Source: Phycisphaerae bacterium (GTDB taxonomy: Bacteria; Planctomycetota; Phycisphaerae; UBA1845). Taken from it: DNA of 64,000 bases. Shown here in pieces: positions 1 through 32,490 of this stretch (positions are counted from its first letter, which is position 1; every line of letters starts with the position of its first letter). The DNA lies in contig JAJVHU010000010.1 in assembly GCA_022072505.1 (NCBI GenBank), positions 174,170 through 238,169 of the forward strand, given 5' to 3'. The position numbers and the translations under genes were made by a program. The notes under the pieces are model-generated. The model did not search any database. It was not told the origin of the DNA and worked only from the letters and a program-made list of their open reading frames with translations.

Positions 1-2
1 TG

Positions 3-1622
3 GACGTCAGCGGTCGCGACCTTTTCACCGTCATTCTGCGCGACATCACCGAGCGGATCGCCCGGGAGAACCACCTGCGGGAGCAGGAGCGCGCGATGCG
101 CACGCTGCTGGCGAACCTTCCCGGGATGGTGTACCGCTGCCGGAATGACCGGGACTGGACGCTTGATTTCGTCAGCGACGGCGCGGCGGAACTGACGGGG
201 TGCGACCTGGAGGATCTGCGCGGCGGGCGCGTGCGGATCGGGCGCGATCTGATTCACGAGGACGATCGTGATCGGGTCTGGGAGGACGTTCAGCGGGCGC
301 TGAAGGAGCGCCGCCCGTTCCAGGTTGAGTACCGGATCGTTCGCCCCGACGGTCGGTTGCGATGGGTCTGGGAGCGCGGGCAGGGGATCTTCGACGATCG
401 CGGCGACGTCCTGGCGCTCGAGGGCTTCATGACGGACATCACGGAGCGGCGTTTCGCGGAGAACGCCCTGCGGGAAAGCGAGGCGAGGCTTCAGGCGATC
501 CTCCGTCATGCGCCGAACGTCGCGATCCAGATCTTCGATCGTCAGGGACGGGTTCTGTTCTGGAACCGGGCGGCGGAGCGTCTTTTCGGATTCACGCAGG
601 AAGAGGCCGTCGGCCGGACGCTGGACCAACTGATCCTGGACGCCGCCGACGCCGCCGGGTTTCTGAAGCTGATCGATCACATCGCGCGGACGGGAGAGCA
701 CGTTCCGCCGGCGGACTGGAGTTTCACGGCGAAGGACGGGACGCGCGGCGTGGTCTACTCGGGGGTTTTTCCGATCGTTTTCGATCAGGATCGTCAGGCC
801 TACGTCTGCATGGACATCGACATCACCGCGCGGCGCCGCGCGGAGGACGCGCTGCGCGCCGCGAACGAGCGGCTGGAGGACCGGGTGCGGGAGCGGACGG
901 CGCAGCTCGAGGAGACGAACGCGGAGCTGGAGGCGTTCACGTATTCGGTGTCGCACGACCTGCGCGCGCCGGTCCGGCACATCAGTTCGTACGCGCGGAT
1001 CCTGCTGGAGGAACACGGCGCGGACTTCACCGGCGATGCGAAGCACTGCGCGTCGTCGATCCTCGCGTCGTCGAAGAAGCTTGGCCGCCTGATCGACGAT
1101 CTTCTGGATTTCTCGCGTCTTGGGCGGCAGGCGGTTCGGCGGGAGGCGGTGGACGTGCCGGCGATGGTGGACGAGGTGTGGCGCGAGGTGGTGAAGCAGT
1201 ATCCGGAAGGAGCGCCCCGGTTGATCGTGGCCGACCTTCCGCCGGCGTGGGCGGATCCGGGCCTGCTGCGCCACGTCTGGTTCAACCTGCTGGAGAACGC
1301 CGCCAAGTACAGCGCGGGCCGCCCGGCGCCTGAAGTGCGCGTCGCGGGATTCGACAGGGGGGGGAAACGCTGGTATTCTGTGTCGGACAACGGTGTGGGC
1401 TTCGACCCGCGGTACGCGGACAGGCTTTTCGGCGTGTTCCAGCGGCTGCACCGGGAAGAGGACTTCCCCGGAACCGGCGTGGGGCTGGCGCTGGTCCGGC
1501 GCATCGTGCAGAAGCACGGCGGCGAAGTCGCCGCCGAAGGACGACTCGATCAGGGGGCGACTTTCTCCTTCCATCTCCCGGAGAACAGGAATGAGCCTGC
1601 CGACGGAAATTCTGCTCGTTGA
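3..1622 (+). CDS. PAS-domain sensor histidine kinase, 5' end cut by window edge
   Basis: Frame is open from base 3 (DVSGRDLFTVILRDITERIA...), so the ATG at 96 is internal. Two PAS-like blocks and a coiled-coil linker. H-box FTYSVSHDLRAP, N-box WFNLLENAAKY, G-boxes DNGVGF and GTGVGLALV. Confidence 0.9.
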   Translation, partial: DVSGRDLFTVILRDITERIARENHLREQERAMRTLLANLPGMVYRCRNDRDWTLDFVSDGAAELTGCDLEDLRGGRVRIGRDLIHEDDRDRVWEDVQRALKERRPFQVEYRIVRPDGRLRWVWERGQGIFDDRGDVLALEGFMTDITERRFAENALRESEARLQAILRHAPNVAIQIFDRQGRVLFWNRAAERLFGFTQEEAVGRTLDQLILDAADAAGFLKLIDHIARTGEHVPPADWSFTAKDGTRGVVYSGVFPIVFDQDRQAYVCMDIDITARRRAEDALRAANERLEDRVRERTAQLEETNAELEAFTYSVSHDLRAPVRHISSYARILLEEHGADFTGDAKHCASSILASSKKLGRLIDDLLDFSRLGRQAVRREAVDVPAMVDEVWREVVKQYPEGAPRLIVADLPPAWADPGLLRHVWFNLLENAAKYSAGRPAPEVRVAGFDRGGKRWYSVSDNGVGFDPRYADRLFGVFQRLHREEDFPGTGVGLALVRRIVQKHGGEVAAEGRLDQGATFSFHLPENRNEPADGNSAR

Positions 1623-2022
1623 GGATGATCCGAACGACGTGGACCTGACGCTCCGCGTGTTCCGGGATCACCAACTGGCGAACCGCATCCGGGTGTTCCG
1701 CGACGGAGCGGAGGTCGTCGAGTACCTGCTGCCCGACGATCGAAGCCGGTCGATCGAGGCGCCGCGGTTCATCCTGCTGGATCTGAAGCTGCCGAAGATC
1801 AGCGGGCTGGACGTGCTGCGACGGATTCGATCCGACGAGCGGACGCGCACGATCCCGGTCGTGATGCTGACGTCCTCGCGTCAGATCCCCGACATCCGCG
1901 AGGCTTACGCCCTGGGGGTGAACAGTTACCTTTGCAAACCGGTCGAGTTCGACGCCTTCGCGGAAGTCGTGCGGCAGCTCGGAATGTACTGGATGCTCCT
2001 GAATGAACCCCCGGCGTCGTGA
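1591..2022 (+). CDS. Single-domain CheY-like response regulator
   Basis: ATG at 1591 inside ORF 1393-2022. Motifs ILLVEDDPNDV, FILLDLKLPKISG, PVVMLTSS, LCKP. Overlaps the upstream kinase stop by about 30 nt. Confidence 0.88.
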   Translation: MSLPTEILLVEDDPNDVDLTLRVFRDHQLANRIRVFRDGAEVVEYLLPDDRSRSIEAPRFILLDLKLPKISGLDVLRRIRSDERTRTIPVVMLTSSRQIPDIREAYALGVNSYLCKPVEFDAFAEVVRQLGMYWMLLNEPPAS

Positions 2023-2055
2023 CCGGAGCGCGCGTCGGGATGGCAAACCGGGAGC

Positions 2056-3660
2056 TTGACGTTGGCACCCGCCTCCGGGGCGGGAAGGGAGAGCGCCTTG
2101 GCCGGACCCGTCAAGGTCGTCATTGTCGAAGACAACGCCAGCGACGTGGACCTGTGTCTGCGCGAGTTGCGGCGCTGCGGGTTCACCGTGAACCACCGCG
2201 TCGTTGATCAGGAACCTCAGTTGCGCGACGCGCTGAGCGGCGCGGACTGGGATGTCATCCTTTCGGATTACACGCTGCCGCGCTTCAGCGCGATGGACGC
2301 GCTGAAGGTCGTCCGGGCTCAACGCCCCGAGATTCCCTTCATCATCGTGACGGGGACGATCGACGAGGAGTCCGCGGTCAACTGCCTGAAGCGCGGCGCC
2401 GACAATTACGTCCTGAAGTCCAACCTGGCGCGACTCGGACCGGCGGTCGAGCAGTCGCTGCGCATGCGCGCCGAGCAGCGTCAACAGCGCCTGCTGAAGG
2501 CGCAACTGCGCGAGGCCCAGAAGATGGAGGCCGTCGGCCAGCTCGCCACGGGCATCGCCCACGATTTCAACAACCTGCTGACGGCGATCCAGGGGTACCT
2601 CCAGCTCGCCCGGATGCACGCGCCCGCGGGAAGTCCGGTCGAAAACGCCCTGTCGGGGATCGCGCAGGCCTGCCAGAACGGCGTGGATCTGACGCAATCG
2701 CTGCTGCGGTTCAGTCGGCGCGGCGAGGCGATGTACGCGCCGGTGGACGTCGTCCACCTCGTCGACGAAAGCGCCCGGCTTTTCCGGCATATCCTTCCGG
2801 CGTCGATCGATATCCGGGTGAATCTGCCTGAAGGACGCCGCCTCTGGGTTCACGGGGATGCGACCCAGATGCAACAGGTGCTCATGAACCTCGCGGTCAA
2901 CGCCCGTGACGCGATGCCCGGCGGCGGAACGCTGACGTTTTCCGTCGCGGAGATGTCCGCCGTGGCGTCGCGACCGGCGGCGCTGCGCGCCCGCGAGGTC
3001 GAGGACGACGCGATCCTTCTGACCGTCGAGGACACCGGTCAGGGAATGTCCGAGGAGGTTCGGCGTCAGGTGTTCGATCCGTTCTTCACGACCAAGCCGC
3101 GCGGTCAGGGCACGGGACTGGGGCTGCCGATGGCGCAGGGCGTCATCCTGGACCACGGAGGGATGATCGACGTCGAGTCCGAACCGGGGCGGGGGACGCG
3201 GTTTCTGATCCTGCTGCCGGCGTGGAAACCGGTGGCGGAGCCCCCCGGCGACATCGACGGCGCCCGGGCGGCGGAGTCGCTGCGGGCGAGCGTGCTGCTG
3301 CTTTGTCCGGATCGTCAGCATCGGGCGGTGATGGCGGAGACGCTGGTCAGCGCCGGATGTCGCGTGACGCAGGTGGACGGGATGCAGGAGGCCGCGGCGG
3401 TTGGCGGTGGAGCGGGACGCTCGTATGATCTGGTCGTGATTGACCCGGGTCACGAGACCGCTTCGCGCCCCTCGCACGAGGAGCTCAGGCGCATCGGCGG
3501 TCCCTGCCCGGTGATCCTGCTGAGGGATCCGGGGTCGGAGGGAGTCCGGCCGCTGCAACCGAATGAGTATCCGCTGGATCGACCGTTCACGATGGGCGAA
3601 TTCGTCGGCGCCGTTCGCCGCGCGATCCGGACGGGAAACCAGGGAGACCGACCCCGATGA
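2056..3660 (+). CDS. Hybrid sensor kinase: N-terminal receiver, HisKA, HATPase_c, C-terminal receiver-like domain
   Basis: Receiver motifs VVIVEDNASDV and VILSDYTLP. H-box GIAHDFNNLL, N-box NLAVNARDAM, G-boxes DTGQGM and GTGLGL. C-terminal block SVLLLCPD...DLVVID resembles a receiver. TTG start is uncertain. Confidence 0.85.
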   Translation: MTLAPASGAGRESALAGPVKVVIVEDNASDVDLCLRELRRCGFTVNHRVVDQEPQLRDALSGADWDVILSDYTLPRFSAMDALKVVRAQRPEIPFIIVTGTIDEESAVNCLKRGADNYVLKSNLARLGPAVEQSLRMRAEQRQQRLLKAQLREAQKMEAVGQLATGIAHDFNNLLTAIQGYLQLARMHAPAGSPVENALSGIAQACQNGVDLTQSLLRFSRRGEAMYAPVDVVHLVDESARLFRHILPASIDIRVNLPEGRRLWVHGDATQMQQVLMNLAVNARDAMPGGGTLTFSVAEMSAVASRPAALRAREVEDDAILLTVEDTGQGMSEEVRRQVFDPFFTTKPRGQGTGLGLPMAQGVILDHGGMIDVESEPGRGTRFLILLPAWKPVAEPPGDIDGARAAESLRASVLLLCPDRQHRAVMAETLVSAGCRVTQVDGMQEAAAVGGGAGRSYDLVVIDPGHETASRPSHEELRRIGGPCPVILLRDPGSEGVRPLQPNEYPLDRPFTMGEFVGAVRRAIRTGNQGDRPR

Positions 3661-4310
3661 ATCCAATTCGAGTCCTTGTCGCCGACGATCACACGCTGGT
3701 GAAGTCCATGCTGGCCGAGCGCCTCCAGCGCGAGCCTGACATCAAGGTCGTCGCCACCGCCGGGCGCGCCGATGAGGCGTTCGACCTCGTGCTGGCGCAT
3801 TCCCCGGACGTGGTGGTGATGGACATCGACATGCCCGGTCTGATCTGCTTCGACGCCGCCCGGCGGATGCTCGCCTCCAGACCGAACACGCGCATTCTCT
3901 TCCTCAGCGCGTTCACGCACGATCATTACATCGAGCAGGCGCTGGCCGTCGGGGCGCTCGGTTACATCACCAAGACGGAACCGGCGGACACGATCATCAG
4001 CGCGGTCCGCAACGTGGCGAACAACCTCTCGCACTTCTCCGACGCGGTCCGCGAGCGGATCGTGCAGGGGCCTTCGGGGCTGAGCCTGGCCTCGCGCCCG
4101 CAAACGCGGGCGTCGCAACTGACGCCGCGGGAGATCGAGGTCGTCCGCTACATTGCCCGCGGGCTGTCGAAAAAAGAGATCGCCCAGCTCATGAACCTCA
4201 GCATCAAGACCGTGGACAAGCACACCTGCAACCTGATGGACAAGCTCGACATCCACGATCGCGTCGAGCTGGCCCGCTTCGCGATCCGCGAGGGGCTTTC
4301 CGAGCCCTGA
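3657..4310 (+). CDS. NarL/FixJ (LuxR-type HTH) response regulator
   Basis: Receiver motifs VLVADDH and VVMDIDMPG. LuxR HTH LTPREIEVVRYIARGLSKKEIAQLMNLSIKTVDKH. ATGA overlap with the upstream stop. Confidence 0.9.
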   Translation: MNPIRVLVADDHTLVKSMLAERLQREPDIKVVATAGRADEAFDLVLAHSPDVVVMDIDMPGLICFDAARRMLASRPNTRILFLSAFTHDHYIEQALAVGALGYITKTEPADTIISAVRNVANNLSHFSDAVRERIVQGPSGLSLASRPQTRASQLTPREIEVVRYIARGLSKKEIAQLMNLSIKTVDKHTCNLMDKLDIHDRVELARFAIREGLSEP

Positions 4311-4651
4311 CCGGCGGCGCCCTGCCGTCCTTTGCGTCACGGCGTCGCCGAAACGCGGAACGTCGCATAATCGGGAGGGCGTCGTCGCTTAAAACCTTGC
4401 GCGGATTTAACCAAGTCACGCTGGACACCCGCCGGGTTGATCGTGGAAGCTGCCCTCAACGGGCCGCTATACTTGTTGGACTCCCCCGTCTTGGAGGCGG
4501 ATACGGCCGGCGGTTTCCCTGTCGCCGGCAGGGAATCGGCGCCGAAGAAGGTCGCGTTACGTCGGAACAAGGGTCCGCGAGTCGTAACGGACCGCGGGAG
4601 GGCTCCGGGAACTCCGGAACCACCCTGGCGGTCGTCTCGGGCGGGTGCGCG

Positions 4652-5506
4652 TTGAAAGACCATCCTGAACAATCCTCAAGCACGGATTACCCGGTTGTGG
4701 CGGGGGGACGCTTCGCCCCCGCGCTTCGGATCACCCGGGGTGAGGGGCTGGGACGCCGCATCCCCTGTCGACGGATCGTGACGCTGGTCGGATCCAGACC
4801 CGGGTGCAAGGTCAATCTTCAGCACCCTGCCGTGGCGCCCGTCCACCTGGCGTTGGTGCATACCGGATCGCGCTGGTTGGCGTGCGACCTGGCGACGCTG
4901 CGCGGGACGCGGCATAACGATCTTCCGCTGCGCGTCGATGAAATGCTCGACGGGAGCGTGCTGGCGCTGGGGCCTTGGGAGTTCCGCGTCGAGATCGCAC
5001 CAACGGACCCGGAGGCGCCCGGAGCAGGGATCGACCTGGATGCCTCGCCGGGGGATCCGACGCTGGAGCACCTCGGCACGCGGCGCTTGTTTCAGCCGGC
5101 GCGCGACGTGTGCCTGATCGGTCGGCGGTCGGGCTGCGACATCGCAATTGAGGACGAGGAGGTGTCCCGCGTTCACGCGATTCTCTTCAAGCATCACGAT
5201 CGCGCCGTCATCGCCGACGTGCTCGCGTCCGTTCCGCTGCGCATCAACGGCGAACCCCGGCGGTTCGCGCACCTTCACCAGGATGACGTGATCGAGGTCG
5301 GGCGCACGCAGTTCAGAGTCCGGTTCCCGCGCGGCGTTCATGCCGCGACGCCCGGCGGAAACGGGGTCGCCGAGCCTCCCGCAACGCCGGAGGCGACGGC
5401 GAAAGAAACCGACCTCGTTGACATCCGGACCGCGGAGGGCAAACATTGGCCGGTGGCGGATCGGCTCGAACGCCTCCGAAAGAACTCGATGCCTTCCGGG
5501 TCATGA
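4652..5506 (+). CDS. Protein with two FHA domains
   Basis: Two FHA-like blocks: VTLVGSRPGCKVNLQHPAVAPVHLALVH...GTRHND...LGPWEFRV and CLIGRRSGCDIAIEDEEVSRVHAILFKH...LRINGE...VIEVGRTQFRVRF. The ORF is open from 4397, but the first ~85 codons look non-coding. A TTG at 4652 is one plausible start. Confidence 0.7.
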   Translation: MKDHPEQSSSTDYPVVAGGRFAPALRITRGEGLGRRIPCRRIVTLVGSRPGCKVNLQHPAVAPVHLALVHTGSRWLACDLATLRGTRHNDLPLRVDEMLDGSVLALGPWEFRVEIAPTDPEAPGAGIDLDASPGDPTLEHLGTRRLFQPARDVCLIGRRSGCDIAIEDEEVSRVHAILFKHHDRAVIADVLASVPLRINGEPRRFAHLHQDDVIEVGRTQFRVRFPRGVHAATPGGNGVAEPPATPEATAKETDLVDIRTAEGKHWPVADRLERLRKNSMPSGS

Positions 5507-5551
5507 GAAGGAGGCGGCGATGTCGCCTTCGTTGCAGGGCGCGCAAGCGAG

Positions 5552-6355
5552 GTGCAGGGAACCTTGACGACGAACCCGGTCAACCTGACAGATGCGGAAC
5601 AGGGCACGCGGCGGCCGTCGAAGGCGTACCTGATCGGGCCCTTGCTGGCGCTTTTATCGATCCCGGCTTATCTGGTCTGGCTGGACGTTTCGCTGCTTCG
5701 GTCGACCGCGTTGCAATCTTTCGCGCTGATGATCGCGGGGACCGTCGTCGGGCTGATGACGCTGAAGACAGACCGTCGCCGACGGGTGAAGGCTGCGGCG
5801 ATCGGCACGGGCGGGTTCCTCCTGCTCGGCACGGGGATGTTCTTTTTCGCCACGAAGCTCCCCCAGCCTGCCGGCGCGCCGGAGGTCGGGGCGCGTGTCC
5901 CGGGATTTACGCTGCCGGATCAGACCGGTCAACCGGTCAGCCTGGCGTCTCTCTACCAACGCGGGGCGACGTTGCTGGTGTTCTATCGCGGGCACTGGTG
6001 AATCACCTGTCTTTCGGAGCTCCGCGGGCTCGGAGACGTTCATCGCAAGCTGGAGGCGCAAAGCGGTCAGGTGATCGCGGTGTCCGTCGACGCGCCGTCG
6101 GTATCGCTCGACGTCGTCGAGCGCCTCGCCCTGCCCTTCGACATTCTCTGCGACGTGGATGCGGCCGTGGTCCGACAGTTCGGGTTGCTGCACACGGGCG
6201 GGAATCCCCACGGCGGCGACACCACCGTCCCGGCAATGTTTCTGATCGGGAGCGAAGGCAAAGTGCTCTGGCGCCGCGTCGCGCAGCGGATTCAGGATCG
6301 CCCGGACCCGCGTGAGATTCTTGACGCGATCGAGCGTCTTGCCGCCGCCCCCTAA
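5552..6355 (+). CDS. Membrane-anchored AhpC/TSA (redoxin-fold) peroxiredoxin-like protein; in-frame TGA at 5999-6001 read as selenocysteine (U-x-x-C)
   Basis: ORFs 5552-6001 and 6071-6355 share one frame and only the TGA separates them. Read-through gives LLVFYRGHW-U-ITCLSELRGL...VIAVSVD...LPFDILCD...PAMFLIGSEGKVLW, a complete thioredoxin-fold peroxiredoxin. The N-terminus has hydrophobic helices. Confidence 0.65.
6012..6036 (+). promoter_or_regulatory. Candidate bacterial SECIS hairpin
   Basis: UUUCGGAGC / loop UCCGCGG / GCUCGGAGA. Eight pairs with one G-G mismatch. Starts 10 nt after the UGA. The G-containing apical loop lies about 22 nt from the UGA. Confidence 0.4.
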
Positions 6356-6424
6356 ATCGCGGCGCGCGGACTCTGCGGAGTTGCTTCCGCGGCGGCGGAG
6401 CGACGGGTCCGTGCGCCGGAGGGA

Positions 6425-6883
6425 CTACGCCTCCTCCTTCGCCCGAAGCGGCACCATCAGAACGGCGCACGGCGCATGCTCCATCACGGCCTTGCTGACC
6501 GATCCGAGAAAAATGCGCGTGACCAGCCCGCGGGCGTGCGTGCCGATGACGATCAGATCCACCTGATTGTCGCAGGCGTAGCGGGTAATCTCGGCAACGG
6601 GAGCGCCGATCCGCGCATCGGTCACGACGCGCAACGATGTCGGACCGACGGCGTCCCGCACAAACGCTTCCAGAAAGCGCTTCGCCTGCTCCTCATCCGG
6701 GGGCAAAGCGAGGACGCCCATCCCGATGTCAGGGGCCGGAAAGGGCTGAACCTCCGGCGACATGATGTGCAGGACGTGGAGCGCGGCGCCGTAGGTCTCG
6801 GCGACGGAGCGGGCGAAATGCGCTGCATTGCGCGCGAGGTCCGAGAAATCGGTCGGCAGTAGAACGTTCCGAAATCGCACCAT
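6425..6883 (-). CDS. Universal stress protein (UspA family)
   Basis: Start MVRFRNVLLPTDFSDLARNA... then DLIVIGTHARGLVTRIFLGSVSKAVMEHAPCAVLMV. ATG at 6883 inside the longer ORF. Confidence 0.88.
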   Translation of the reverse strand: MVRFRNVLLPTDFSDLARNAAHFARSVAETYGAALHVLHIMSPEVQPFPAPDIGMGVLALPPDEEQAKRFLEAFVRDAVGPTSLRVVTDARIGAPVAEITRYACDNQVDLIVIGTHARGLVTRIFLGSVSKAVMEHAPCAVLMVPLRAKEEA

Positions 6884-7058
6884 CGTCGCCCCCTTCGGAA
6901 TGACCCCTGTCCGCCGGCAACAAGCCAACGATCCCGTCATTCTGCGCGTCGAAGACCGTCTTGGCGAGAGAAAACCACTGAAACTGGTAGCAAATCCCGC
7001 GCCGAGCAAACCCTGCGCCGCTCACCGACCCCCTGAAATAATTTTTATATCTAAACAT

Positions 7059-7086
7059 TTGAAATCAATATTTTCGACGTTATAAT
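7059..7086 (+). promoter_or_regulatory. Near-consensus sigma-70 promoter, TTGAAA-N16-TATAAT, for the marR-like gene
   Basis: TTGAAA at 7059-7064 and TATAAT at 7081-7086, inside a ~60-bp very AT-rich island in a GC-rich genome. The ATG at 7094 lies 7 nt after the -10, so the mRNA would be leaderless or nearly so. Confidence 0.5.
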
Positions 7087-7093
7087 AATCGGC

Positions 7094-7738
7094 ATGTCGG
7101 ATCGGGTTGATCTCATCCTGGAACAGTGGCGGCGGGAGCGGCCTGACGTAAACGTCGAGTCGCTCGGACTGGTTAACCGAGTCCTCGCTCTGGCGAAACA
7201 CCTGGAAGACAGGGCTAACGAAGCGCTCGCGCCGTTCGGGCTGCAACTTTGGCAGTATGACGTTCTGTCCGCACTTCGCCGTGCCGGACCGGAATACGCG
7301 TTGTCCCCGTCGGAACTTTGTCGGGTGTCAACCCTCAGTTGCGGCGCGATGACGCACCGGCTGGACCGTCTCGAAGAGGCCGGGTTGGTGCGGCGCGAAC
7401 CGGATCCCGCGGACCGACGCGGATTGCGCATCCGGCTGACCGAGGCGGGGCGGACCTGCATTGACGCGGCGCTGGAACCGCGCGTGGCGCAAGCCGCCCG
7501 GTTTGCCGAGACGCTTCCGGTCGAAGATCGCGCTATCCTGGCGGAACTCCTGCGACGGCTCCTGATGTCCTGTGACCGCAGCGCGGCGCCGGAACCCGAC
7601 CCAGCCTCGTCGGCGTCGCGCCGCAGCCGAGCCGGTCGTCGTCGTTCCCGGCTTCGCGCCCCGCAGACGGCCCCGGCGTGGGCGCCGGACGGACTTCCGG
7701 ACGTCAGCGCCTCCGCGCCGCGGATAGATCCATCCTGA
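7094..7738 (+). CDS. MarR family transcriptional regulator with a low-complexity C-terminal tail
   Basis: Winged-helix block LQLWQYDVLSALRRAG...LSPSELCRVSTLSCGAMTHRLDRLEEAGLVRREPDPADRRGLRIRLTEAG. Confidence 0.88.
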   Translation: MSDRVDLILEQWRRERPDVNVESLGLVNRVLALAKHLEDRANEALAPFGLQLWQYDVLSALRRAGPEYALSPSELCRVSTLSCGAMTHRLDRLEEAGLVRREPDPADRRGLRIRLTEAGRTCIDAALEPRVAQAARFAETLPVEDRAILAELLRRLLMSCDRSAAPEPDPASSASRRSRAGRRRSRLRAPQTAPAWAPDGLPDVSASAPRIDPS

Positions 7739-7807
7739 AGGAGCGTTGCGCATGAACCACCGGCGGGGGCCTCGCTCTCGCCAACCCGCGAAAAAGGAGT
7801 GTTGAAC

Positions 7808-8998
7808 ATGTCTACGATGCAATTGCCTCAAGCCGCCCCGTCGTCGCCGCGCAAGGTGAAGTACATCCGGGAGATCGAAGCGGTTCCGCATCTTTCGACG
7901 GCACAGAAGGAGCGTCTGAAAGCCGTCGCCGACCGCTACGTCTTCCGGGCCAACGATTACTATCTCGGGCTGATTGACTGGAGCGACCCGAACGACCCGA
8001 TCCGCCAGCTCATCATCCCCCGCGAGGAGGAGTTGAACGACTGGGGGAAGCTGGACGCCAGCAACGAGGCCGCGGTCACGGTCGCGCAGGGCGTGCAGCA
8101 CAAGTACACGCACACGGTCCTGCTCCTGTGCAACGAGGTTTGCGGCGCGTACTGCCGGTACTGCTTCCGGAAGCGCCTTTTCATGGACGGCAACGACGAG
8201 ACGTCCAACGACGTCTCGGCGGGACTGAAGTACATCCGGGAGCACCCGGAGGTGACCAACGTCCTGCTGACCGGCGGAGACCCGCTGCTGATGAGCACGC
8301 GGCGGCTGCGCGAAATCATCGAGGAGCTGCGGGCGATCGATCACGTTCGCATCATCCGGATCGGGTCGAAGATGCCCGCGTTCGACCCGTGGCGCCTGAC
8401 GCGGGACGCGGAGCTTCAGGAGGTGCTGCGGCGGAACTCGACGCCGCGGAAGCGCATCTATCTGATGGCGCACTTCGATCATCCGCGCGAGCTGACGGAC
8501 GCGGCGGTGGAGGGTCTCGACGCCTTCCTCCGGTGCGGCGTGATCTGCGTGAACCAGTGTCCCCTGATCGCGGGGATCAACGACGACGAGGAAGTGCTCG
8601 GGACGATGTACCGGGAGCTGTCGTTCATCGGATGTCCGCCGTATTACCTTTTTCAGGGGCGGCCGACCGCCGGCAACGAACCCTACGAGGTTCCGCTCGT
8701 CCGGGGGTTTCACATTTTCCGCGGGGCGATGCGGCGCGGGTCCGGTCTGGCGAGCCGGGCGCGGTACGTGATGTCGCACGAGACGGGGAAGGTGGAGATT
8801 CAGGCGGTCGATGACCGTTACATCTACCTGCGGTATCATCGGGCGAAGGATCCCGCGATGCGCGGGCGGTTCATGATCTACCACCGCAACGACGAGGCGT
8901 ACTGGCTGGACCAGCTCGAACCGACCGATGCGTCAGGGCAGCTTGCGCCGGTGTTCACCGCGTCCGCGCCGGACGAGGTTCTCGAGGGTCCGGAGTGA
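7808..8998 (+). CDS. KamA-family radical SAM aminomutase (lysine 2,3-aminomutase-like)
   Basis: CxxxCxxC cluster CGAYCRYCFRK, followed by VTNVLLTGGDPLLM and IRIGSKMP. AAGGAG Shine-Dalgarno at 7794-7799, 8 nt before the ATG at 7808. Confidence 0.85.
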   Translation: MSTMQLPQAAPSSPRKVKYIREIEAVPHLSTAQKERLKAVADRYVFRANDYYLGLIDWSDPNDPIRQLIIPREEELNDWGKLDASNEAAVTVAQGVQHKYTHTVLLLCNEVCGAYCRYCFRKRLFMDGNDETSNDVSAGLKYIREHPEVTNVLLTGGDPLLMSTRRLREIIEELRAIDHVRIIRIGSKMPAFDPWRLTRDAELQEVLRRNSTPRKRIYLMAHFDHPRELTDAAVEGLDAFLRCGVICVNQCPLIAGINDDEEVLGTMYRELSFIGCPPYYLFQGRPTAGNEPYEVPLVRGFHIFRGAMRRGSGLASRARYVMSHETGKVEIQAVDDRYIYLRYHRAKDPAMRGRFMIYHRNDEAYWLDQLEPTDASGQLAPVFTASAPDEVLEGPE

Positions 8999-10356
8999 GG
9001 GACCGGCCGCCGGGCAGGAGGGGCATCTTCGCCGTGGACGCTTCAACAACGCGATCGTCGCAGCGCCTCGACGGCCGTTTCGTCAGCCTCAACCTGAACG
9101 TGCGCGGGATGGGGCCGTCCGCGACGCTGGCGATCAAGGAGCGCTGCCGCGCGCTGCGCGCGCAAGGCCGGCGCATTTACGACTTCGGACTGGGGCAGTC
9201 GCCCTTCCCCGTGCCGACGTCGGTCGTCGAAGCCCTGCGCCGCGCCGCGCACGAGAAGGACTATCTTCCGGTGAAGGGACTTCCGGCCCTGCGCGAAGCC
9301 GTCGCCGAGTTTCACCGTCGGAAGGAAGGCGTTCCGGCGCAGGCGGAGCACGTGTTGATCAGTCCGGGCTCGAAGGAGCTGATGTTTCTGCTGCAGCTTG
9401 TGTTTTACGGCGAGATCATCCTGCGCACGCCGTGCTGGGTGTCGTATCTGCCGCAGGCGCAGATCATCGGGCGGCGCGTCACGCTGATCCCGACGACCTT
9501 CGAGGGCGGGTGGAAGATCACGCCGGAGAACCTGATGTGGGCGCTGGTCGGAGCCAACGACGACGCGCGCCCGCGACTGCTCGTCCTGAACTACCCGATG
9601 AATCCGACGGGGCACAGTTACACGGTCGACGAGCTGCGCGACCTGGCCGGAGTCGCCAGGCGGTACAACCTCATCGTCCTGTCGGACGAGATTTACGGAC
9701 AACTGCACTTCAGGGGCGAGCACGTTTCGATCGCGCGGTTCTGCCCGGAACGAACGATCATCAGTTCGGGGCTGTCGAAGTGGTGCGGCGCGGGGGGCTG
9801 GCGGCTGGGGACGTTCACGTTTCCGCCGGATTTAAGCTGGCTGCTGGACGCGATGTCCGCGGTCGCCAGCGAGACGTACACGTCGGTTTCGGCGCCGATC
9901 CAGCACGCGGCGGTGGAGGCGTTCCGCTGCGGCGTGGAGATCGAGCGCTATTTGTGGCAGGTGCGCCGGATTCTGGCGGCGCTGGGCGCATCCTGCGCCC
10001 GGACGTTGAATGAAGGCGGCGCGCGGGTGGCGTTGCCGGTCGGCGCGTTCTACCTGTTTCCGGACTTCTCACCGCTGGCGGACCGGCTCGCGCGGCGCGG
10101 GGTGTTGACGGGCGCGGACCTGGCGGGGCGACTGCTGGACGAGACGGGCGTTGCGGTGCTTCCGGGATCGGATTTCGGACGACCGGCGGAGGAAATGACG
10201 GCGCGGCTCTCCTACGTCGACTTCGACGGCGGGCAGGCGCTGGCGGCGGGGGAGACGATCCCGCTCGATCAGGAGCTTCCGCCGGACTTCCTGTCGCAGC
10301 ATTGTCCGAACGTGCTCGAGGGCGTTCAAAGGATCGCGAGCTGGGCGGCCGGCTAG
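8995..10356 (+). CDS. Class I/II PLP-dependent aminotransferase
   Basis: Motifs IYDFGLGQSPFPVP, LNYPMNPTG and the PLP-lysine region SGLSKWCGAGGWRLG. GTG start overlaps the kamA-like stop (GTGA). Confidence 0.85.
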   Translation: MRDRPPGRRGIFAVDASTTRSSQRLDGRFVSLNLNVRGMGPSATLAIKERCRALRAQGRRIYDFGLGQSPFPVPTSVVEALRRAAHEKDYLPVKGLPALREAVAEFHRRKEGVPAQAEHVLISPGSKELMFLLQLVFYGEIILRTPCWVSYLPQAQIIGRRVTLIPTTFEGGWKITPENLMWALVGANDDARPRLLVLNYPMNPTGHSYTVDELRDLAGVARRYNLIVLSDEIYGQLHFRGEHVSIARFCPERTIISSGLSKWCGAGGWRLGTFTFPPDLSWLLDAMSAVASETYTSVSAPIQHAAVEAFRCGVEIERYLWQVRRILAALGASCARTLNEGGARVALPVGAFYLFPDFSPLADRLARRGVLTGADLAGRLLDETGVAVLPGSDFGRPAEEMTARLSYVDFDGGQALAAGETIPLDQELPPDFLSQHCPNVLEGVQRIASWAAG

Positions 10357-10567
10357 CCCGGCGTCAGCGGTTCGATAACACGAGCGCTTCCCGTATTCTC
10401 CGGGGTTTCACGTCGGGAGGGCGTGCGTCCGTGAACCGCGGGCCTCAGGAGGCGGAATTCTCGGATCCGGATCGACAGGCCACGTGAAAGGCGCTAGGAT
10501 TCATGACGACGGCGGGACGGAAGGACGTCTCGCGGCGAGGCGACGGTTGAACACGCGGGGGAAAGTC

Positions 10568-10912
10568 ATGCGGCAATCACGGCGGGCTGGGAATTCCGGG
10601 CGGGCGTGGGTGATCGTGGCGGCGGCTTTGAGCGTTGTCAGCGTTTCCGCGTTTGCGGACGACTCCGCGCGGCCCGCGCCTGTCGCGATCGTCGGCAGCG
10701 CCGTGGATGTCGTGGACGTAACGGCGGTGGACGGACCGGTCAACTTTGCGGACCCGGTGATCGAGGAGGTCATGCGGCCGTTGTACAACTCGGGCGCGGC
10801 AGGATCGGTGGATGCTCAGCAGTCTTGCGGAGCGTTCGGCGGGGCTTCGATTCCGGCGGCGTTGGCGATGTTCGCGGCGCTTTCGTGGATGAACCCTCGG
10901 CGCCGTCGGTAG
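10568..10912 (+). CDS. Small secreted protein with a C-terminal sorting-signal-like tail
   Basis: N-terminal signal peptide MRQSRRAGNSGRAWVIVAAALSVVSVSAFA. The C-terminus FGGASIPAALAMFAALSWMNPRRRR is Gly-Gly, then a hydrophobic helix, then an Arg cluster. Confidence 0.5.
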   Translation: MRQSRRAGNSGRAWVIVAAALSVVSVSAFADDSARPAPVAIVGSAVDVVDVTAVDGPVNFADPVIEEVMRPLYNSGAAGSVDAQQSCGAFGGASIPAALAMFAALSWMNPRRRR

Positions 10913-10916
10913 GCGG

Positions 10917-11120
10917 TTACTTCGGCTTGAGGACGGGCAGCGAGACGCGCCGTCCGGAGTCGACGGCCGCAGCGATCCGCGTGGACTTTGTTGCGCTGCA
11001 TCCGCCGTCGGCGCAGCCGCAACCTCGCCCTCGCAGCGCGCCAACCGCGCGATAACCGAGGTAAAGGCCTGCCGCGGCGACGGCCGCGATCACGAAACCG
11101 TCCTGAACCGTCACGATCAC
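10917..11120 (-). CDS. Small Cys-rich membrane protein (FeoB-associated Cys-rich-like architecture)
   Basis: One TM helix (FVIAAVAAAGLYLGY) followed by GCGCADGGC. Lies directly downstream of the NtrC-like gene on the same strand. Confidence 0.4.
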   Translation of the reverse strand: MIVTVQDGFVIAAVAAAGLYLGYRAVGALRGRGCGCADGGCSATKSTRIAAAVDSGRRVSLPVLKPK

Positions 11121-11171
11121 CTTTCTGAAACGCCGGCGGCGCGGGCGCGCCCGGAAAACATCCCGGCAAGG

Positions 11172-12539
11172 CTACTTCAACATTCCGAATTTCTCCAGCC
11201 GGTAGCGGAAAGCGTCGCGCCGCAGCCCGAGCAACCTCGCGGCCTGCGTCTGATTGTTTCCGCTGCGCTCCATCGCCTGCCGGATCAGCTCTCCCTCGAG
11301 CATCTTAAGATTGATCCCCTCCGGCGGAAGGGCGAAAGCCGAGCGGGAGGTCGCCGCCGCCGGGCGTCCGCCGCCGCCGACCACGATGTCGTCGCCCGTC
11401 AGCGCGTCCCCTCGGGCGAGGAGGACGGCCCGCTCGATGACGTTGCGCAGCTCGCGGACGTTGCCCGGCCAGGCGTAGGCGCAGAGCTTCCGGAAGGCGG
11501 TCTCGTCGATCTGGTGGATGTTTTTGCGAAACTCCCTGGCGAAGCGGGCGGTCATGTGCTGGGCGAGGATGCGGATGTCGTCGCCGCGTTCGCGCAGCGG
11601 CGGCAGGAGGATCGAGATGACGTTCAGCCGGTAGAAGAGGTCCTCGCGGAACTGCCCGTCGGCGATCGCCTTCTCGATGTCGCGGTTCGTCGCCGCGATG
11701 ACGCGGACGTCCACGGAGATTTCGGTCGTTCCGCCGACGCGGCGGAAGCGGCGCTCCTCGAGGAAGCGCAGGAGCTTGGCCTGAAGCCCCGGGGGCATGT
11801 CGCCGACCTCGTCAAGGAAGATCGTGCCGCCGTCGGCCATCTCGAAGAGGCCTTTCTTCTGCGCCTTGGCGTCGGTGAACGCGCCGCGTTCGTGCCCGAA
11901 AAGCTCGCTTTCCAGCAGGGTTTCGGACAGGGCGGTGCAGGTGATGTTCATGAAGGGGCGCGGGGCGCGGTCCGAGTTGTAATGAATGACGCGGGCGACG
12001 AGATCCTTCCCGGTTCCGCTCTCGCCGCGCAGGAAGATGGTCGAGGCGTTGCTTTCGGCGACGCGGCGGATGATGTCAAAAAGCTCCTTCATGCAGGCGT
12101 GTTCACCGACGATGCGCGAGACGTCGTACTCGTTCTCGATGTGCTCGCGGTAGTGGCGCACCTCACGGCGCAGCTTCGTCGTCTCCAGGGCCTTCTGGAC
12201 GGTCCGCAGAAGCTGGTCCATGTCGAACGGCTTGGTGATGTAGTCGTACGCTCCGAGCTTCATCGCATCGACCGCGCTTTCGATCGTCGAGAAGGCGGTC
12301 ATCATGATGACGACGACGTCGCTGTCGTGCTCCCGGACATGCGACAGGACGTCCAGACCGGTCATGTCGGGAAGGCGGTAATCCAGCATGATGAGGTCGT
12401 AGACGCCGCCGTTCAGGGCCTCCAGCGCCTCGGTCCCCGACTGCGCCTCGGTGACCTGGTAGCCCAGCGACTCAAACTTCTGGCGCAGCGACCAGCGGAT
12501 CAGTTGTTCATCTTCAATGATGAGAATGCGTACGTTCAT
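11172..12539 (-). CDS. Sigma-54-dependent response regulator (NtrC family)
   Basis: Receiver ILIIEDEQ...LIMLDYRLPDMTG. AAA+ Walker A GESGTGKDLVA. GAFTDA sigma-54 contact loop. C-terminal Fis-type HTH QTQAARLLGLRRDAFRYRLEKFG. Confidence 0.92.
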   Translation of the reverse strand: MNVRILIIEDEQLIRWSLRQKFESLGYQVTEAQSGTEALEALNGGVYDLIMLDYRLPDMTGLDVLSHVREHDSDVVVIMMTAFSTIESAVDAMKLGAYDYITKPFDMDQLLRTVQKALETTKLRREVRHYREHIENEYDVSRIVGEHACMKELFDIIRRVAESNASTIFLRGESGTGKDLVARVIHYNSDRAPRPFMNITCTALSETLLESELFGHERGAFTDAKAQKKGLFEMADGGTIFLDEVGDMPPGLQAKLLRFLEERRFRRVGGTTEISVDVRVIAATNRDIEKAIADGQFREDLFYRLNVISILLPPLRERGDDIRILAQHMTARFAREFRKNIHQIDETAFRKLCAYAWPGNVRELRNVIERAVLLARGDALTGDDIVVGGGGRPAAATSRSAFALPPEGINLKMLEGELIRQAMERSGNNQTQAARLLGLRRDAFRYRLEKFGMLK

Positions 12540-13740
12540 GTTGGCCTCGAATTCTTTCAGGACCGCCGCGCGGGAGTTCGACGACGGCTGTCGTGCCCCG
12601 CCCGGCTTCGCTGTGCAGGTGTAACTCTCCTCCGTGCTCCTCGACGATGCGCCGGCAGATCGACAGTCCCAGTCCGGTTCCGCGGGCCTTGGTGGTGAAG
12701 AAGGGCTCCAGCGCCCGGGCGAGGACGTCCGCCGTCATGCCCTTGCCCTGATCCTCGACGCGGAGGCGGACGCGATCGGCCCCCTCGTCGATGTGCAGGG
12801 AGATCGCCTGTCCGTTGCGCGAGGCATGCGCCGCGTTGAGCACGAGGTTGAGCACCACCTGCTCGATCTGCCCGTCGTCGGCGACGATGTTGACGTCGTG
12901 ATCCGGCGCCCGGAAGGCGAGACGCCGCCCGCTGATCGCCGGTTCCTCGCGCACAAGCGTCATCACGCGGTTCACCACCGCGCCCAGCGACACCTCTCGC
13001 AGGTGCAGCGGGCGAGGCCGGGCGTACTGGAGCAGGTCTTTCACCGTCGAGTCGAGTCGATCAATCTGCCGGAGAATCTCGACGACGATCGGGCGGTGCG
13101 GGTCGTTGTCCGGCATGTGATCGCCGATGACCTGGATTGCGCCGCTGATGCCGGCGAGCGGATTCTTGATCTCGTGGGCGAGCGACGCGGCGAGCTGGCC
13201 GAGCTCCGCGAGCTTCTCCGCCCGATCCAGGCGATCCTCCATCGTCGCCCGCTCCAACTGACGCACCCGGTCCAGGTGGCTGCGGACATAGCTCTCCAGC
13301 ATGATCGCCAGGTCCAGCATCAGCAGGCGGTTCAGCGAATCCAGCAACGGGGCGACCTCCGCGCCGCCGGCGGCAAGCAGCCGCGTGGTCAACTCGTGAC
13401 GAATCAGCTCCATCCCGAGGAACATGTAACGCTGCGGCAACTGAACACGGACGTGCGTCACGCCGACCTGAAGGCGTTTCTCGACGTACTTCAGGTCGTA
13501 AGGCCCCTCGAAGAGTTCCTTCATCCAGCCGGCAAGCTGAACCTTAAGCCGCTCGATCTGCGCCAAACCGCCGACGAACACCGCGCGAGCGCTGTCGTGA
13601 CGCATCAACTCATCGTAAAAACGCTGGACCACGGCTGAGATGAGCGGCGTCGCCATCGGGGCGAGGCTTTTGAGGTTTCGCTCATCGGCGGTTCCAAAGC
13701 CGACATATTGCTTCATCTCTTCCAGTAAAGCTGCATCCAT
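12514..13740 (-). CDS. Globin-coupled sensor histidine kinase
   Basis: N-terminal protoglobin-like domain MDAALLEEMKQYVGFGTADERNLKSL...RFYDEL...VGVTHVRVQLPQRYMFLGM. H-box LAASLAHEIKNPLAG, N-box LNLVLNAAHA, G-boxes DQGKGM and GTGLGLS. ATG at 13740 chosen over the upstream low-complexity extension. Confidence 0.8.
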   Translation of the reverse strand: MDAALLEEMKQYVGFGTADERNLKSLAPMATPLISAVVQRFYDELMRHDSARAVFVGGLAQIERLKVQLAGWMKELFEGPYDLKYVEKRLQVGVTHVRVQLPQRYMFLGMELIRHELTTRLLAAGGAEVAPLLDSLNRLLMLDLAIMLESYVRSHLDRVRQLERATMEDRLDRAEKLAELGQLAASLAHEIKNPLAGISGAIQVIGDHMPDNDPHRPIVVEILRQIDRLDSTVKDLLQYARPRPLHLREVSLGAVVNRVMTLVREEPAISGRRLAFRAPDHDVNIVADDGQIEQVVLNLVLNAAHASRNGQAISLHIDEGADRVRLRVEDQGKGMTADVLARALEPFFTTKARGTGLGLSICRRIVEEHGGELHLHSEAGRGTTAVVELPRGGPERIRGQHERTHSHH

Positions 13741-14037
13741 CGCCTGAGTATAACGGCGCAGTGAGCCTTCTGCCGCACCACCCCGAGCAGGCTCCGGCTG
13801 GGACTGGCTCTCGTCCGGGCAACCCGGCAGCAACCCCGCAGGCAATGCCTGAGGCCTCGAAGCACGCTGCCGGCGTTCAGCTTCCGTGCAAGTACGCTCC
13901 GACTTGAGCCTGGCTCTTTGATACATGTTTCCGCGTTTTTCGCCGACATCCGCTTCGGAGGACGTTGCTTGCCGCGACGCTCCGGGGAAAGTCCCAGTAT
14001 TCACCTGAAGTTCATTCAAATCGTTGTCCCGGTCAGG

Positions 14038-14053
14038 GGCACTAGCCGTGCCA
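14038..14053 (-). promoter_or_regulatory. Candidate sigma-54 (-24/-12) promoter facing the globin-kinase/NtrC operon
   Basis: Minus strand reads TGGCACGGCTAGTGCC. The TGGCACG -24 box is perfect. The GC of the -12 box is at canonical spacing, with GTGC in place of TTGC. Lies about 300 nt upstream of the ATG at 13740. Confidence 0.35.
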
Positions 14054-14584
14054 GCGGCTTGATTTCCAGGGCTGCCCTTCAAGAACCTTGCCCTCAGCCG
14101 CGCCTAAGGCACATCAATGCTTGGCGCACGGTTTATGAATGACGTGCGAGACAAGGAGTCGATCGAACCGGGCATTCCTAAGAGTGCGCCTTTTGACACA
14201 ATCAGATGAGCTGCTCGGTCCCGATCCGCGTGAATTGGCGCGGCTTTCATCGGAGCGGCGGTCAACCTTGAAGCGTAACGGCTTGGGTAGCGGGTCCGGG
14301 AGTCTCGATGTATACCAAGGCCACGGGTGCGGGTGCGCGCCCGGAGCCGATCCGTGAGATCGGCTGGGCGGCGGTTTCCTTGCAGTTTGAGGACGTGGCG
14401 GCTACGTGTTCGACCCCCGCGGCGGCAGGTTGGCTCGGATCAGGGCGGAGTTGACTGACCTATGACACGTCTGAGCGACCGCCGGGATGACGTCGATGTC
14501 GCCGCAGGGATCCCGCGGACGTCGGGATTGTGTTGCAGCAAACCCTTCAAGGGTCGAACTCCGGGGATATCAGCGCTGATCGGG

Positions 14585-32411: not shown

Positions 32412-32440
32412 CCCAGCACTGGCGTGCTGGGCTGTTTTCC
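32412..32440 (+). terminator. Orphan terminator-like hairpin
   Basis: CCCAGCAC-TGGC-GTGCTGGG (8-bp stem, 4-nt loop), followed by CTGTTTTCC. No CDS ends here. Confidence 0.45.
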
Positions 32441-32448
32441 AGCGCTCC

Positions 32449-32490
32449 TTCCGGGGCTAAGACTCCCGCTCCCGGGGCTAAGACTCCCGC
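32449..32490. repeat. 2 x 21-bp tandem repeat (TYCCGGGGCTAAGACTCCCGC)
   Basis: Read directly from the sequence. Each unit can form a 5-bp hairpin (CGGGG/CTCCG). Confidence 0.9.

Follow-up and report, generated by a model that had tools for sequence, protein, structure and literature searches.

We analysed a putative selenoprotein gene at positions 5552-6355 (+ strand) of a 64-kb stretch of DNA from a Phycisphaerae bacterium (contig JAJVHU010000010.1), and this whole stretch is called the window in what follows. The segment is very probably one gene that encodes a 267-residue selenoprotein, in which a three-helix membrane anchor precedes a peroxiredoxin-like (Prx-like) domain of the thioredoxin type with the active site W-U150-I-T-C153. 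We are, if anything, slightly more confident of the narrower claim that the UGA at 5999-6001 encodes selenocysteine (Sec, U), and the doubt that is left concerns the Sec machinery of the genome. The evidence consists of a single frame and a protein domain that run across the UGA, the correspondence of U150 with an invariant Cys column, the conservation of the UGA in relatives, purifying selection downstream of it, constraint at the RNA level, and hairpins that are specific to the Sec-containing members of the family. The original prediction, which was made from the letters of the DNA, had proposed a membrane-anchored selenoprotein with a U-x-x-C motif, and it is supported by the UGA conservation, the selection, the frozen synonymous sites and the Sec-specific hairpins described below.

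One reading frame across a conserved UGA

The frame comprises 267 codons from GTG 5552 to the TAA stop at 6353-6355, and the TGA at 5999-6001 is its sole interruption. In other words, the in-frame UGA lies within an otherwise uninterrupted homologous coding frame. The N-terminal coding part (5552-5998, residues 1-149) encodes three hydrophobic helices, a linker and the initial beta-strands of the Prx-like domain, and it ends with ...LLVFYRGHW. It is followed by the proposed Sec codon, i.e. position 1 of the U-I-T-C redox motif, and by the C-terminal coding part (6002-6355, residues 151-267) that completes the Prx-like thioredoxin fold and contains Cys153 (TGT, 6008-6010), which is the resolving Cys in the U-x-x-C motif. 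The read-through peptide thus runs from ...LLVFYRGHW over the UGA into ITCLSELRGLGDV; the longer stretch upstream of the UGA is GATLLVFYRGHW. It is uncertain whether the gene starts at GTG 5552 or at TTG 5564.

If U is replaced by Cys, the protein matches positions 1-123 of the 124 positions of the Pfam AhpC-TSA profile across the TGA (E=1e-24, 87.2 bits vs a cutoff of 26), and the Pfam Redoxin profile is also matched across it (E=9e-17). The GC content at third codon positions is 0.82 before the TGA and 0.80 after it, and GTG 6071, the next possible start, shares its frame with GTG 5552. The single frame interrupted by the TGA only is as the original prediction had described it, and so is the expected mis-annotation, as the gene stands in public gene calls as a 146-residue 'hypothetical protein' and a separate 95-residue AhpC-TSA fragment that covers the last 94-95 residues. 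A reassigned genetic code was considered and rejected, because TGA serves as an ordinary stop in the window and terminates more of its long coding-like open reading frames (ORFs) than any other codon, i.e. 12 of 21.

A protein search returned relatives of two kinds, ORF fragments of 146-161 residues that end at ...FYRG[HY]W, and full-length proteins of ~260 residues that continue as W-C-P-[FT]-C. Behind every ORF fragment, the DNA has a TGA at that codon, followed by an in-frame x-x-Cys and an intact domain. We refer to the two kinds as Sec-forms and Cys-forms, respectively. One closely related lineage (L001-L004) is represented by 21 contigs from several sequencing runs and by the NCBI metagenome-assembled genome (MAG) 'Planctomycetota bacterium BroJett003', and its protein is 85% identical to that of the window; the protein of another one (L005) is 83% identical and has the same TGA. 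Among the three close lineages (the window, L001 and L005) the proteins are 81-85% identical and the TGA is kept. In a distant clade (L006-L009) the motif is U-P-F/Y-C, with the TGA at the same column. Moreover, positions 5955-6924 of the window, the TGA included, recur with 100% identity in a separate Logan assembly (L210, run SRR10609168). An assembly artefact, which had been named as a possible refutation of the original prediction, is thus contradicted both by this assembly and by the same TGA in L001-L005.

The DNA pattern V-F-Y-R-G-[HY]-W-TGA-x-x-Cys was matched by at least 120 metagenome contigs, all with the TGA at the same column, and there are 118 distinct sequence contexts among the matches listed. 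Among the same matches, 98 of the 102 Sec-forms with a complete downstream frame remain open for at least 100 codons past the TGA; the chance of this is ~4% for each in random sequence of like composition. The other four (L100, L118, L150 and L200) have only 34-68 open codons after the TGA, which would fit decaying copies as well as frameshifts or errors in the assembly.

A control set was obtained by scanning reference genomes with the peptide pattern VFYRG[SHY]WC, which detects Cys-forms only and found 371 such relatives. When 6 Sec-forms are aligned with 14 Cys-forms, the column of the TGA coincides with the invariant first Cys of W-C-x-x-C, i.e. the UGA is at the redox-Cys column where it had been placed, and the column of Cys153 is invariant too. 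The UGA column is therefore Cys in homologues with conserved flanks (a Sec/Cys pair); a Cys at the UGA column of homologues has been used as a criterion for selenoproteins (PMC1088965). Sec- and Cys-forms interleave by similarity: the nearest outgroup is a Sec-form (L191, 48%), then come Cys-forms at 43-47%, and then more Sec-forms.

The selection on the two parts of the gene was estimated by comparing the window with L001 and L005. For the part behind the TGA, the ratio of nonsynonymous to synonymous substitution rates (dN/dS) is 0.14-0.22, compared with 0.29-0.49 for the part before it, with a synonymous divergence (dS) of 0.17-0.31 between the three lineages. No additional disabling mutation was found in the relatives compared (L001-L005 and others). 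The low downstream dN/dS and the absence of further disabling mutations argue that the sequence after the TGA is translated in frame; in other words, the UGA is kept in orthologues and the part behind it is under purifying selection.

The hairpin downstream of the UGA

Among the single hairpins that can form after the UGA, the best is the SECIS-like (selenocysteine insertion sequence-like) one at 6012-6036 (+). It occupies positions 14-38 counted from the U of the UGA, has a predicted energy of -11.3 kcal/mol, and is part of the minimum free energy structure. Its lower stem pairs 6012-6015 with 6033-6036 (UUUC/GAGA) and its upper stem pairs GAGCUC (6017-6022) with GGGCUC (6026-6031), which leaves the apical loop CGC at 6023-6025, i.e. 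+25 to +27 with the U of the UGA as 1. The alternative is a 7-nt loop (UCCGCGG) on a 4-bp upper stem. The stem begins 10 nt past the UGA; the minimal SECIS of Escherichia coli fdhF begins 11 nt after the UGA and has its GGUC loop at about +22.

The region shows a clear signature of constraint at the nucleotide level. The longest run of nucleotides identical in the three close lineages is a 61-nt block (5987-6047, +) that covers both the UGA and the hairpin, and the next longest run is 26 nt. Synonymous changes were found in none of the 15 codons after the TGA vs 56 of 191 codons elsewhere (Fisher p=0.007). An RNA-level constraint thus acts on the region of the UGA and the hairpin.

Hairpins were then compared between 117 unique Sec-forms and 79 Cys-forms, counting uninterrupted stems whose loop has 3-6 nt and begins between +17 and +30. 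Stems of at least 5 bp are found in 97% of the Sec-forms and 30% of the Cys-forms, stems of at least 6 bp in 72% and 13%, and stems of at least 7 bp in 48% and 5%, respectively. The loops differ as well: a G is present in the first two loop nucleotides in 81% of the Sec-forms vs 44% of the Cys-forms, and GU occurs within the loop in 56% vs 11%. For the Leu that is encoded within the loop, the Sec-forms use UUR in 56% of the cases, vs 18% gene-wide, whereas the Cys-forms have no such bias (30% vs 27%). The contrast is most direct for the sequences that encode E-L-x-G-L, where 25 of 25 Sec-forms have stems of 6-9 bp and the nearest Cys-forms (L010-L014) have none. The same peptide SELRGL is encoded through GAG CTG CGC GGC CTG in L010-L014, with no stem, and through GAG CTC CGC GGG CTC in the window.

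Three registers recur among the Sec-forms, i.e. an AGUUR loop at +20, a GGN loop at +25, which is the register of the window, and a GGUC loop at +28. The registers go together with different peptide motifs encoded at +1 to +42 (loci L090-L209), namely N-[SL]-E-L-R-[GS] or A-R-Q-L-A-x, Q-L-G-[EK]-L, and E-L-Q-G-L, which suggests that the SECIS and the encoded helix-1 sequence co-evolve. Covariation was investigated in 67 AGUUR-loop sequences that were selected by loop sequence alone, over six stem pairs and with 500 shuffles. In this class, which is a sister to the window's own hairpin class, 86% of the cells are paired vs 57% in the shuffled sets, 110 cells vs 39 are changed on both sides, and the covariation score is 0.72 vs 0.23; none of the 500 shuffles reaches the observed score, and slid registers give at most 0.28.

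The SECIS-like hairpin that had been predicted about 10 nt after the UGA thus exists, and a bacterial SECIS-type hairpin is recognised here by comparative evidence, i.e. by the frozen synonymous sites, the contrast between Sec-forms and Cys-forms and the covariation in the sister class, rather than by folding energy or Rfam.

We also note a single Cys-form in a MAG of Candidatus Rokuibacteriota (L015:4110-4607, JBKKCN010000327.1) with the sequence CPFCRLELQGLGAS, which has a 9-bp hairpin, GAGCTCCAA-GGTC-TTGGAGCT, identical to the GGUC-loop SECIS-like stems of Sec-forms. Possibly, this gene changed from Sec to Cys recently and has kept its SECIS as a fossil.

Fold, active site and relation to known families

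The closest solved structures by profile alignment are the BCP/PrxQ protein 2cx3 (E=3.5e-29) and AhpE (1xvw), followed by ResA. In these alignments 'VFyRGsWCpfC' lies over 'IFFPAAFSPVC' of BCP and 'VFFPLAFTGIC' of AhpE. The column of U150 therefore matches the Ser/Thr in P-x-x-x-T/S-x-x-C, the signature of peroxiredoxins, and Cys153 is the equivalent of the peroxidatic Cys (Cp) of both proteins. The Pro of the signature is replaced by Arg146, and the catalytic Arg by the invariant Pro227 (6230-6232, +), at the site where thioredoxin-fold oxidoreductases carry their cis-Pro. Since the Pro, the Thr/Ser and the Arg are all replaced and the Sec is outside the peroxidatic position, the protein is by its sequence a thioredoxin-type W-U-x-x-C site on a Prx-like scaffold and not a canonical peroxiredoxin, of which only the Cp-equivalent Cys153 is retained. 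From the original prediction, the U-x-x-C redox motif with U as the nucleophile stands, but the label of a peroxiredoxin with U in place of the peroxidatic Cys does not, as U aligns with Thr/Ser and Cys153 with Cp.

The AlphaFold model of a Cys homologue (P0003), which we used as a stand-in for the window protein, has three N-terminal helices and then a Prx-like fold, with the C-x-x-C at the start of a helix (predicted local distance difference test score, pLDDT, 86; predicted template modelling score, pTM, 0.80). Foldseek matches this model to Bcp4, BcpB, PrxQ and AhpE with template modelling (TM) scores of 0.80-0.89, and to ResA with 0.79-0.81. The three N-terminal helices of the model agree with Kyte-Doolittle hydropathy, which predicts as many membrane segments for the window protein (about residues 26-46, 53-71 and 81-100; nt 5627-5689, 5708-5764 and 5792-5851), and the membrane anchor of the original prediction is thereby supported. 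The loop between the second and third segments (residues 72-80, KTDRRRRVK) has six Lys/Arg residues, and the first segment comes after RRPSK. Under the positive-inside rule, the Lys/Arg-rich loop suggests that the N-terminus is cytoplasmic and that the catalytic domain would face outward, i.e. the periplasm. A family member on the contig L105 has a lipobox-type signal (...GFVGC), which fits an extracytoplasmic family.

The proposed mechanism starts with a SelB-type elongation factor that would bind, together with Sec-tRNA(Sec), to the mRNA hairpin at 6012-6036, so that the ribosome would read the UGA at 5999-6001 as selenocysteine rather than as a stop. In the protein, the selenolate of U150 would be the exposed nucleophile that attacks an oxidised substrate, most likely a disulfide and possibly a sulfenic acid or a peroxide. 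A selenenylsulfide would then form between U150 and C153, and a membrane or periplasmic thiol-reducing pathway may re-reduce this bond. The predicted chemistry is most likely thioredoxin-like.

Selenoproteins of this general kind are known. Prx-like selenoproteins with a thioredoxin-like UXXC instead of TXXU have been described (PMC1088965), 'Prx-like 1' (pfam00578, UxxC) counted 225 sequences in the Global Ocean Sampling (GOS) data (PMC2398784), and a review lists a 'Prx-like thiol:disulfide oxidoreductase' with PF00578 (PMC13188914, Table 1). Prx-like UxxC/UxxU selenoproteins were predicted in Geobacter and in the Sargasso Sea/GOS metagenomes (PMC1088965; PMC2398784; PMC13188914). The window protein is, by profile and motif, a member of the Prx-like UxxC family, with a PF00578 score of 87.2 bits vs 26 and U-I-T-C in place of T-x-x-U. 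Like the Prx-like 1 selenoproteins, it has the PF00578 domain, the U-x-x-C motif, Cys-forms that are far more numerous, and a SECIS hairpin right after the UGA. Unlike them, its subfamily has a three-helix N-terminal membrane anchor (a lipoprotein signal in L105) and a strict VFYRG[HY]W-U-x-x-C, and is found in Planctomycetota-type and soil contigs; the Prx-like 1 representative WP_010940744.1 was compared by description only.

No NCBIfam model reaches its cutoff for the window protein. The best match is the 'SelL-related redox protein' model NF040769, with 55.6 bits vs a cutoff of 120 (48.9 for the L006 clade). The protein shares with SelL / PRX_like2 the Prx fold, a C/U-x-x-C/U motif and the lack of the Prx catalytic triad, but the score below the curated cutoff means that it is not a member. 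Eukaryotic SelL has a U-x-x-U motif and no membrane anchor. BCP/PrxQ and AhpE peroxiredoxins (2cx3, 3hjp, 1xvw) are the closest structures by profile and fold, with Cys153 at the peroxidatic site; the window protein differs from them in having R-G-H-W-U-I-T-C for P-x-x-x-T/S-x-x-C and Pro227 for the catalytic Arg. True Sec-peroxiredoxins (PrxU, T-x-x-U) carry the Sec at the Cp position, whereas the window protein does not. ResA/TlpA/CcmG proteins resemble it in the W-C-x-x-C of its Cys homologues, the Pro at the cis-Pro site, the N-terminal anchor and the predicted outward domain, as well as by profile (E=1.6e-17) and by the fold match made through the P0003 model (TM 0.79-0.81). On the other hand, the scores of the ResA/TlpA-type NCBIfam models are far below cutoff (37.5 bits vs 170 for NF002854, 29.9 vs 230 for NF047696), there are three helices rather than one, and no cytochrome-maturation or ccdA/dsbD gene adjoins the window gene.

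A Prx-like U-x-x-C selenoprotein has been a known kind since 2004-2008, and no new principle is involved. We tentatively propose, as a possibility that we would put somewhat below even chances, that the sequences described here form a distinct subfamily with no curated model, i.e. membrane-tethered or lipoprotein-type, outward-facing VFYRG[HY]W-U-x-x-C selenoproteins with at least three SECIS registers and repeated switching between Sec and Cys. Such a subfamily appears abundant in soil and bioreactor bacteria, Planctomycetota-like and probably Acidobacteriota-like. If it is real, a selenium-dependent periplasmic redox activity would be wholly overlooked by current annotation. The family is systematically lost from proteomes, given the split gene calls and the absence of an NCBIfam model at cutoff, in spite of its at least 120 metagenome contigs. 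The reading also implies that a Planctomycetota lineage related to the MAG BroJett003 decodes Sec and needs selenium, and that it would have a selenolate active site on the outward side of the membrane. The main value is in annotation and SECIS modelling: the same peptide in Sec-forms and Cys-forms, with the hairpin only in the Sec set, provides a clean natural contrast that is useful for training bacterial SECIS predictors.

Sec decoding, rival explanations and gene surroundings

Several points weigh against the selenoprotein reading or parts of it. Neither a tRNA-Sec nor selA, selB or selD was found within the 64-kb window or on the contigs of close relatives: ARAGORN detected neither a tRNA in the window and L001-L009 nor a tRNA-Sec in the 1.85 Mb of loci analysed, the Rfam gathering scan of the window gave no match to a tRNA-Sec model, and tblastn with E. 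coli SelA, SelB and SelD (approximate probes, used as a screen only) found no match in the window. Sec decoding in the window's organism is thus suggested on an indirect basis. The apical loop of the window hairpin, CGC, is without the GU found in most family members, and no Rfam SECIS model matches in the gathering scan of the whole window or in a permissive scan of 5900-6150, where the sole Rfam match was nhaA-II at chance level (E=7.8). The folding energy of the window hairpin gives z=+1.15 vs dinucleotide shuffles and z of about 0 vs synonymous-codon shuffles, i.e. no signal in either, and was for this reason dropped as evidence; at the family level, the stability signal in shuffles is weak (mean z -0.70 vs -0.30). 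The comparisons of Sec-forms with Cys-forms ignore phylogeny, and their Cys set comes from a different collection with a lower GC content (52% vs 57%). Finally, the orientation of the catalytic domain towards the periplasm and the choice of substrate follow from sequence rules alone.

With respect to Sec decoding in related organisms, complete sets of Sec-insertion genes are present in some Planctomycetes, i.e. Gemmata, Isosphaera and two Porphyra-associated strains (PMC4807772). Across all loci, the tblastn screen for SelA, SelB and SelD gave just two matches, a selD on L105 and, on L144, an AIR-synthase-like protein. The L105 gene passes TIGR00476 with 400 bits vs a cutoff of 125, and has an in-frame TGA of its own at HGAG-U-ACK. 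L105 is an 8-kb metagenome contig (Ga0181591_10010473) in which the lipoprotein-type Sec-form (U-P-Y-C) is 2 kb from selD (selD at L105:75-1187 and the Prx-like Sec-form at 3315-4382, both on the - strand). Between the two are a transglutaminase/TPR-like ORF and a GcvT/YgfZ-like ORF, both names being putative and given by sequence reading. The L144 protein was rejected as a SelD, as it scores 84 bits vs the cutoff of 125 and its best matches, also below cutoff, are HypE and ThiL.

The same observations bear on the other ways in which an interrupted frame can arise. A pseudogene, i.e. a nonsense mutation in a Cys-type Prx-like gene with a decaying downstream part, might be suspected where a stop interrupts a domain and the window has no Sec machinery, and the 4 of 102 metagenome homologues with short downstream frames (among the matches listed) show that some copies may be decaying. 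However, lineages whose synonymous sites differ by 17-31% have all retained the TGA, with no further disabling mutation and with the downstream dN/dS given above, at least 120 diverse homologues whose frames are intact share the TGA at this column, and a nonsense mutation would not yield the frozen 61-nt block or the Sec-specific hairpins; we regard this origin as very improbable. Even less weight is due to a sequencing or assembly error, where the true codon would be TGC or TGT. A single-base change would indeed restore the Cys-form, but the separate assembly of run SRR10609168 is identical, and the TGA recurs in the 21 BroJett003-lineage contigs from several runs, in the NCBI MAG, and in the 118 distinct metagenome contexts among the matches listed, so that the probability of an error is close to nil.

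A true split, in which the UGA terminates a membrane protein of 149 residues, a fragment of 94 residues has its own start at GTG 6071, and the two function apart or assemble, would correspond exactly to the two ORFs that gene callers predict. Yet neither piece is a complete fold: the N-terminal one breaks off at the active-site Trp, and the C-terminal one is without the motif and without helix 1. A split is also disfavoured by the 23 in-frame, conserved codons that lie between the TGA and GTG 6071, since they encode the invariant Cys153 and E-L-R-G; moreover, the predicted restart position varies between clades, e.g. it is 18 nt after the TGA in L008. We consider a split highly unlikely, though a shade less so than a pseudogene. 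A somewhat larger, still small probability goes to read-through of the UGA without selenium, by near-cognate Trp, Cys or Arg insertion, or by Cys insertion via the Sec pathway under selenium limitation. This would be compatible with the unverified Sec machinery of the genome and with the atypical loop of the window hairpin. It is at odds with the column being strictly Cys in the non-UGA homologues, which is the typical pattern of Sec/Cys pairs, with downstream hairpins that have bacterial SECIS geometry and covariation, with the linkage of one family member (L105) to a Sec-containing selD, and with UGA being the most common ordinary stop in the window. The insertion of selenocysteine thus remains the preferred reading of the UGA.

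The gene neighbourhood was compared between the clades. In the clade of the window, the gene is surrounded by FHA, Usp, MarR and radical-SAM genes, and in L006 by unrelated ones; no conserved partner gene adjoins the Sec gene, as the neighbours differ between the clades compared. Positions 1-15978 of the window are colinear with L001:4438-20441 of the BroJett003 lineage at 89% nucleotide identity. The shared segment contains two-component regulators, FHA, the Sec gene, Usp, MarR, radical SAM, an aminotransferase, a sigma-54 activator and a protoglobin kinase, and the 16-kb colinearity indicates that the window is from a related species.

Two other pairs of same-frame ORFs bridged by a TGA pass the coding filter based on GC at third codon positions, at ~2020 (+) and at 57012 (+). 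Both lie opposite long ORFs, and they are probably antisense artefacts and not selenoprotein genes. The sole match of the Rfam gathering scan in the window is an Acido-Lenti-1 small RNA at 32412-32458 (+), with 38.2 bits vs a gathering threshold of 37 (E=4e-5).

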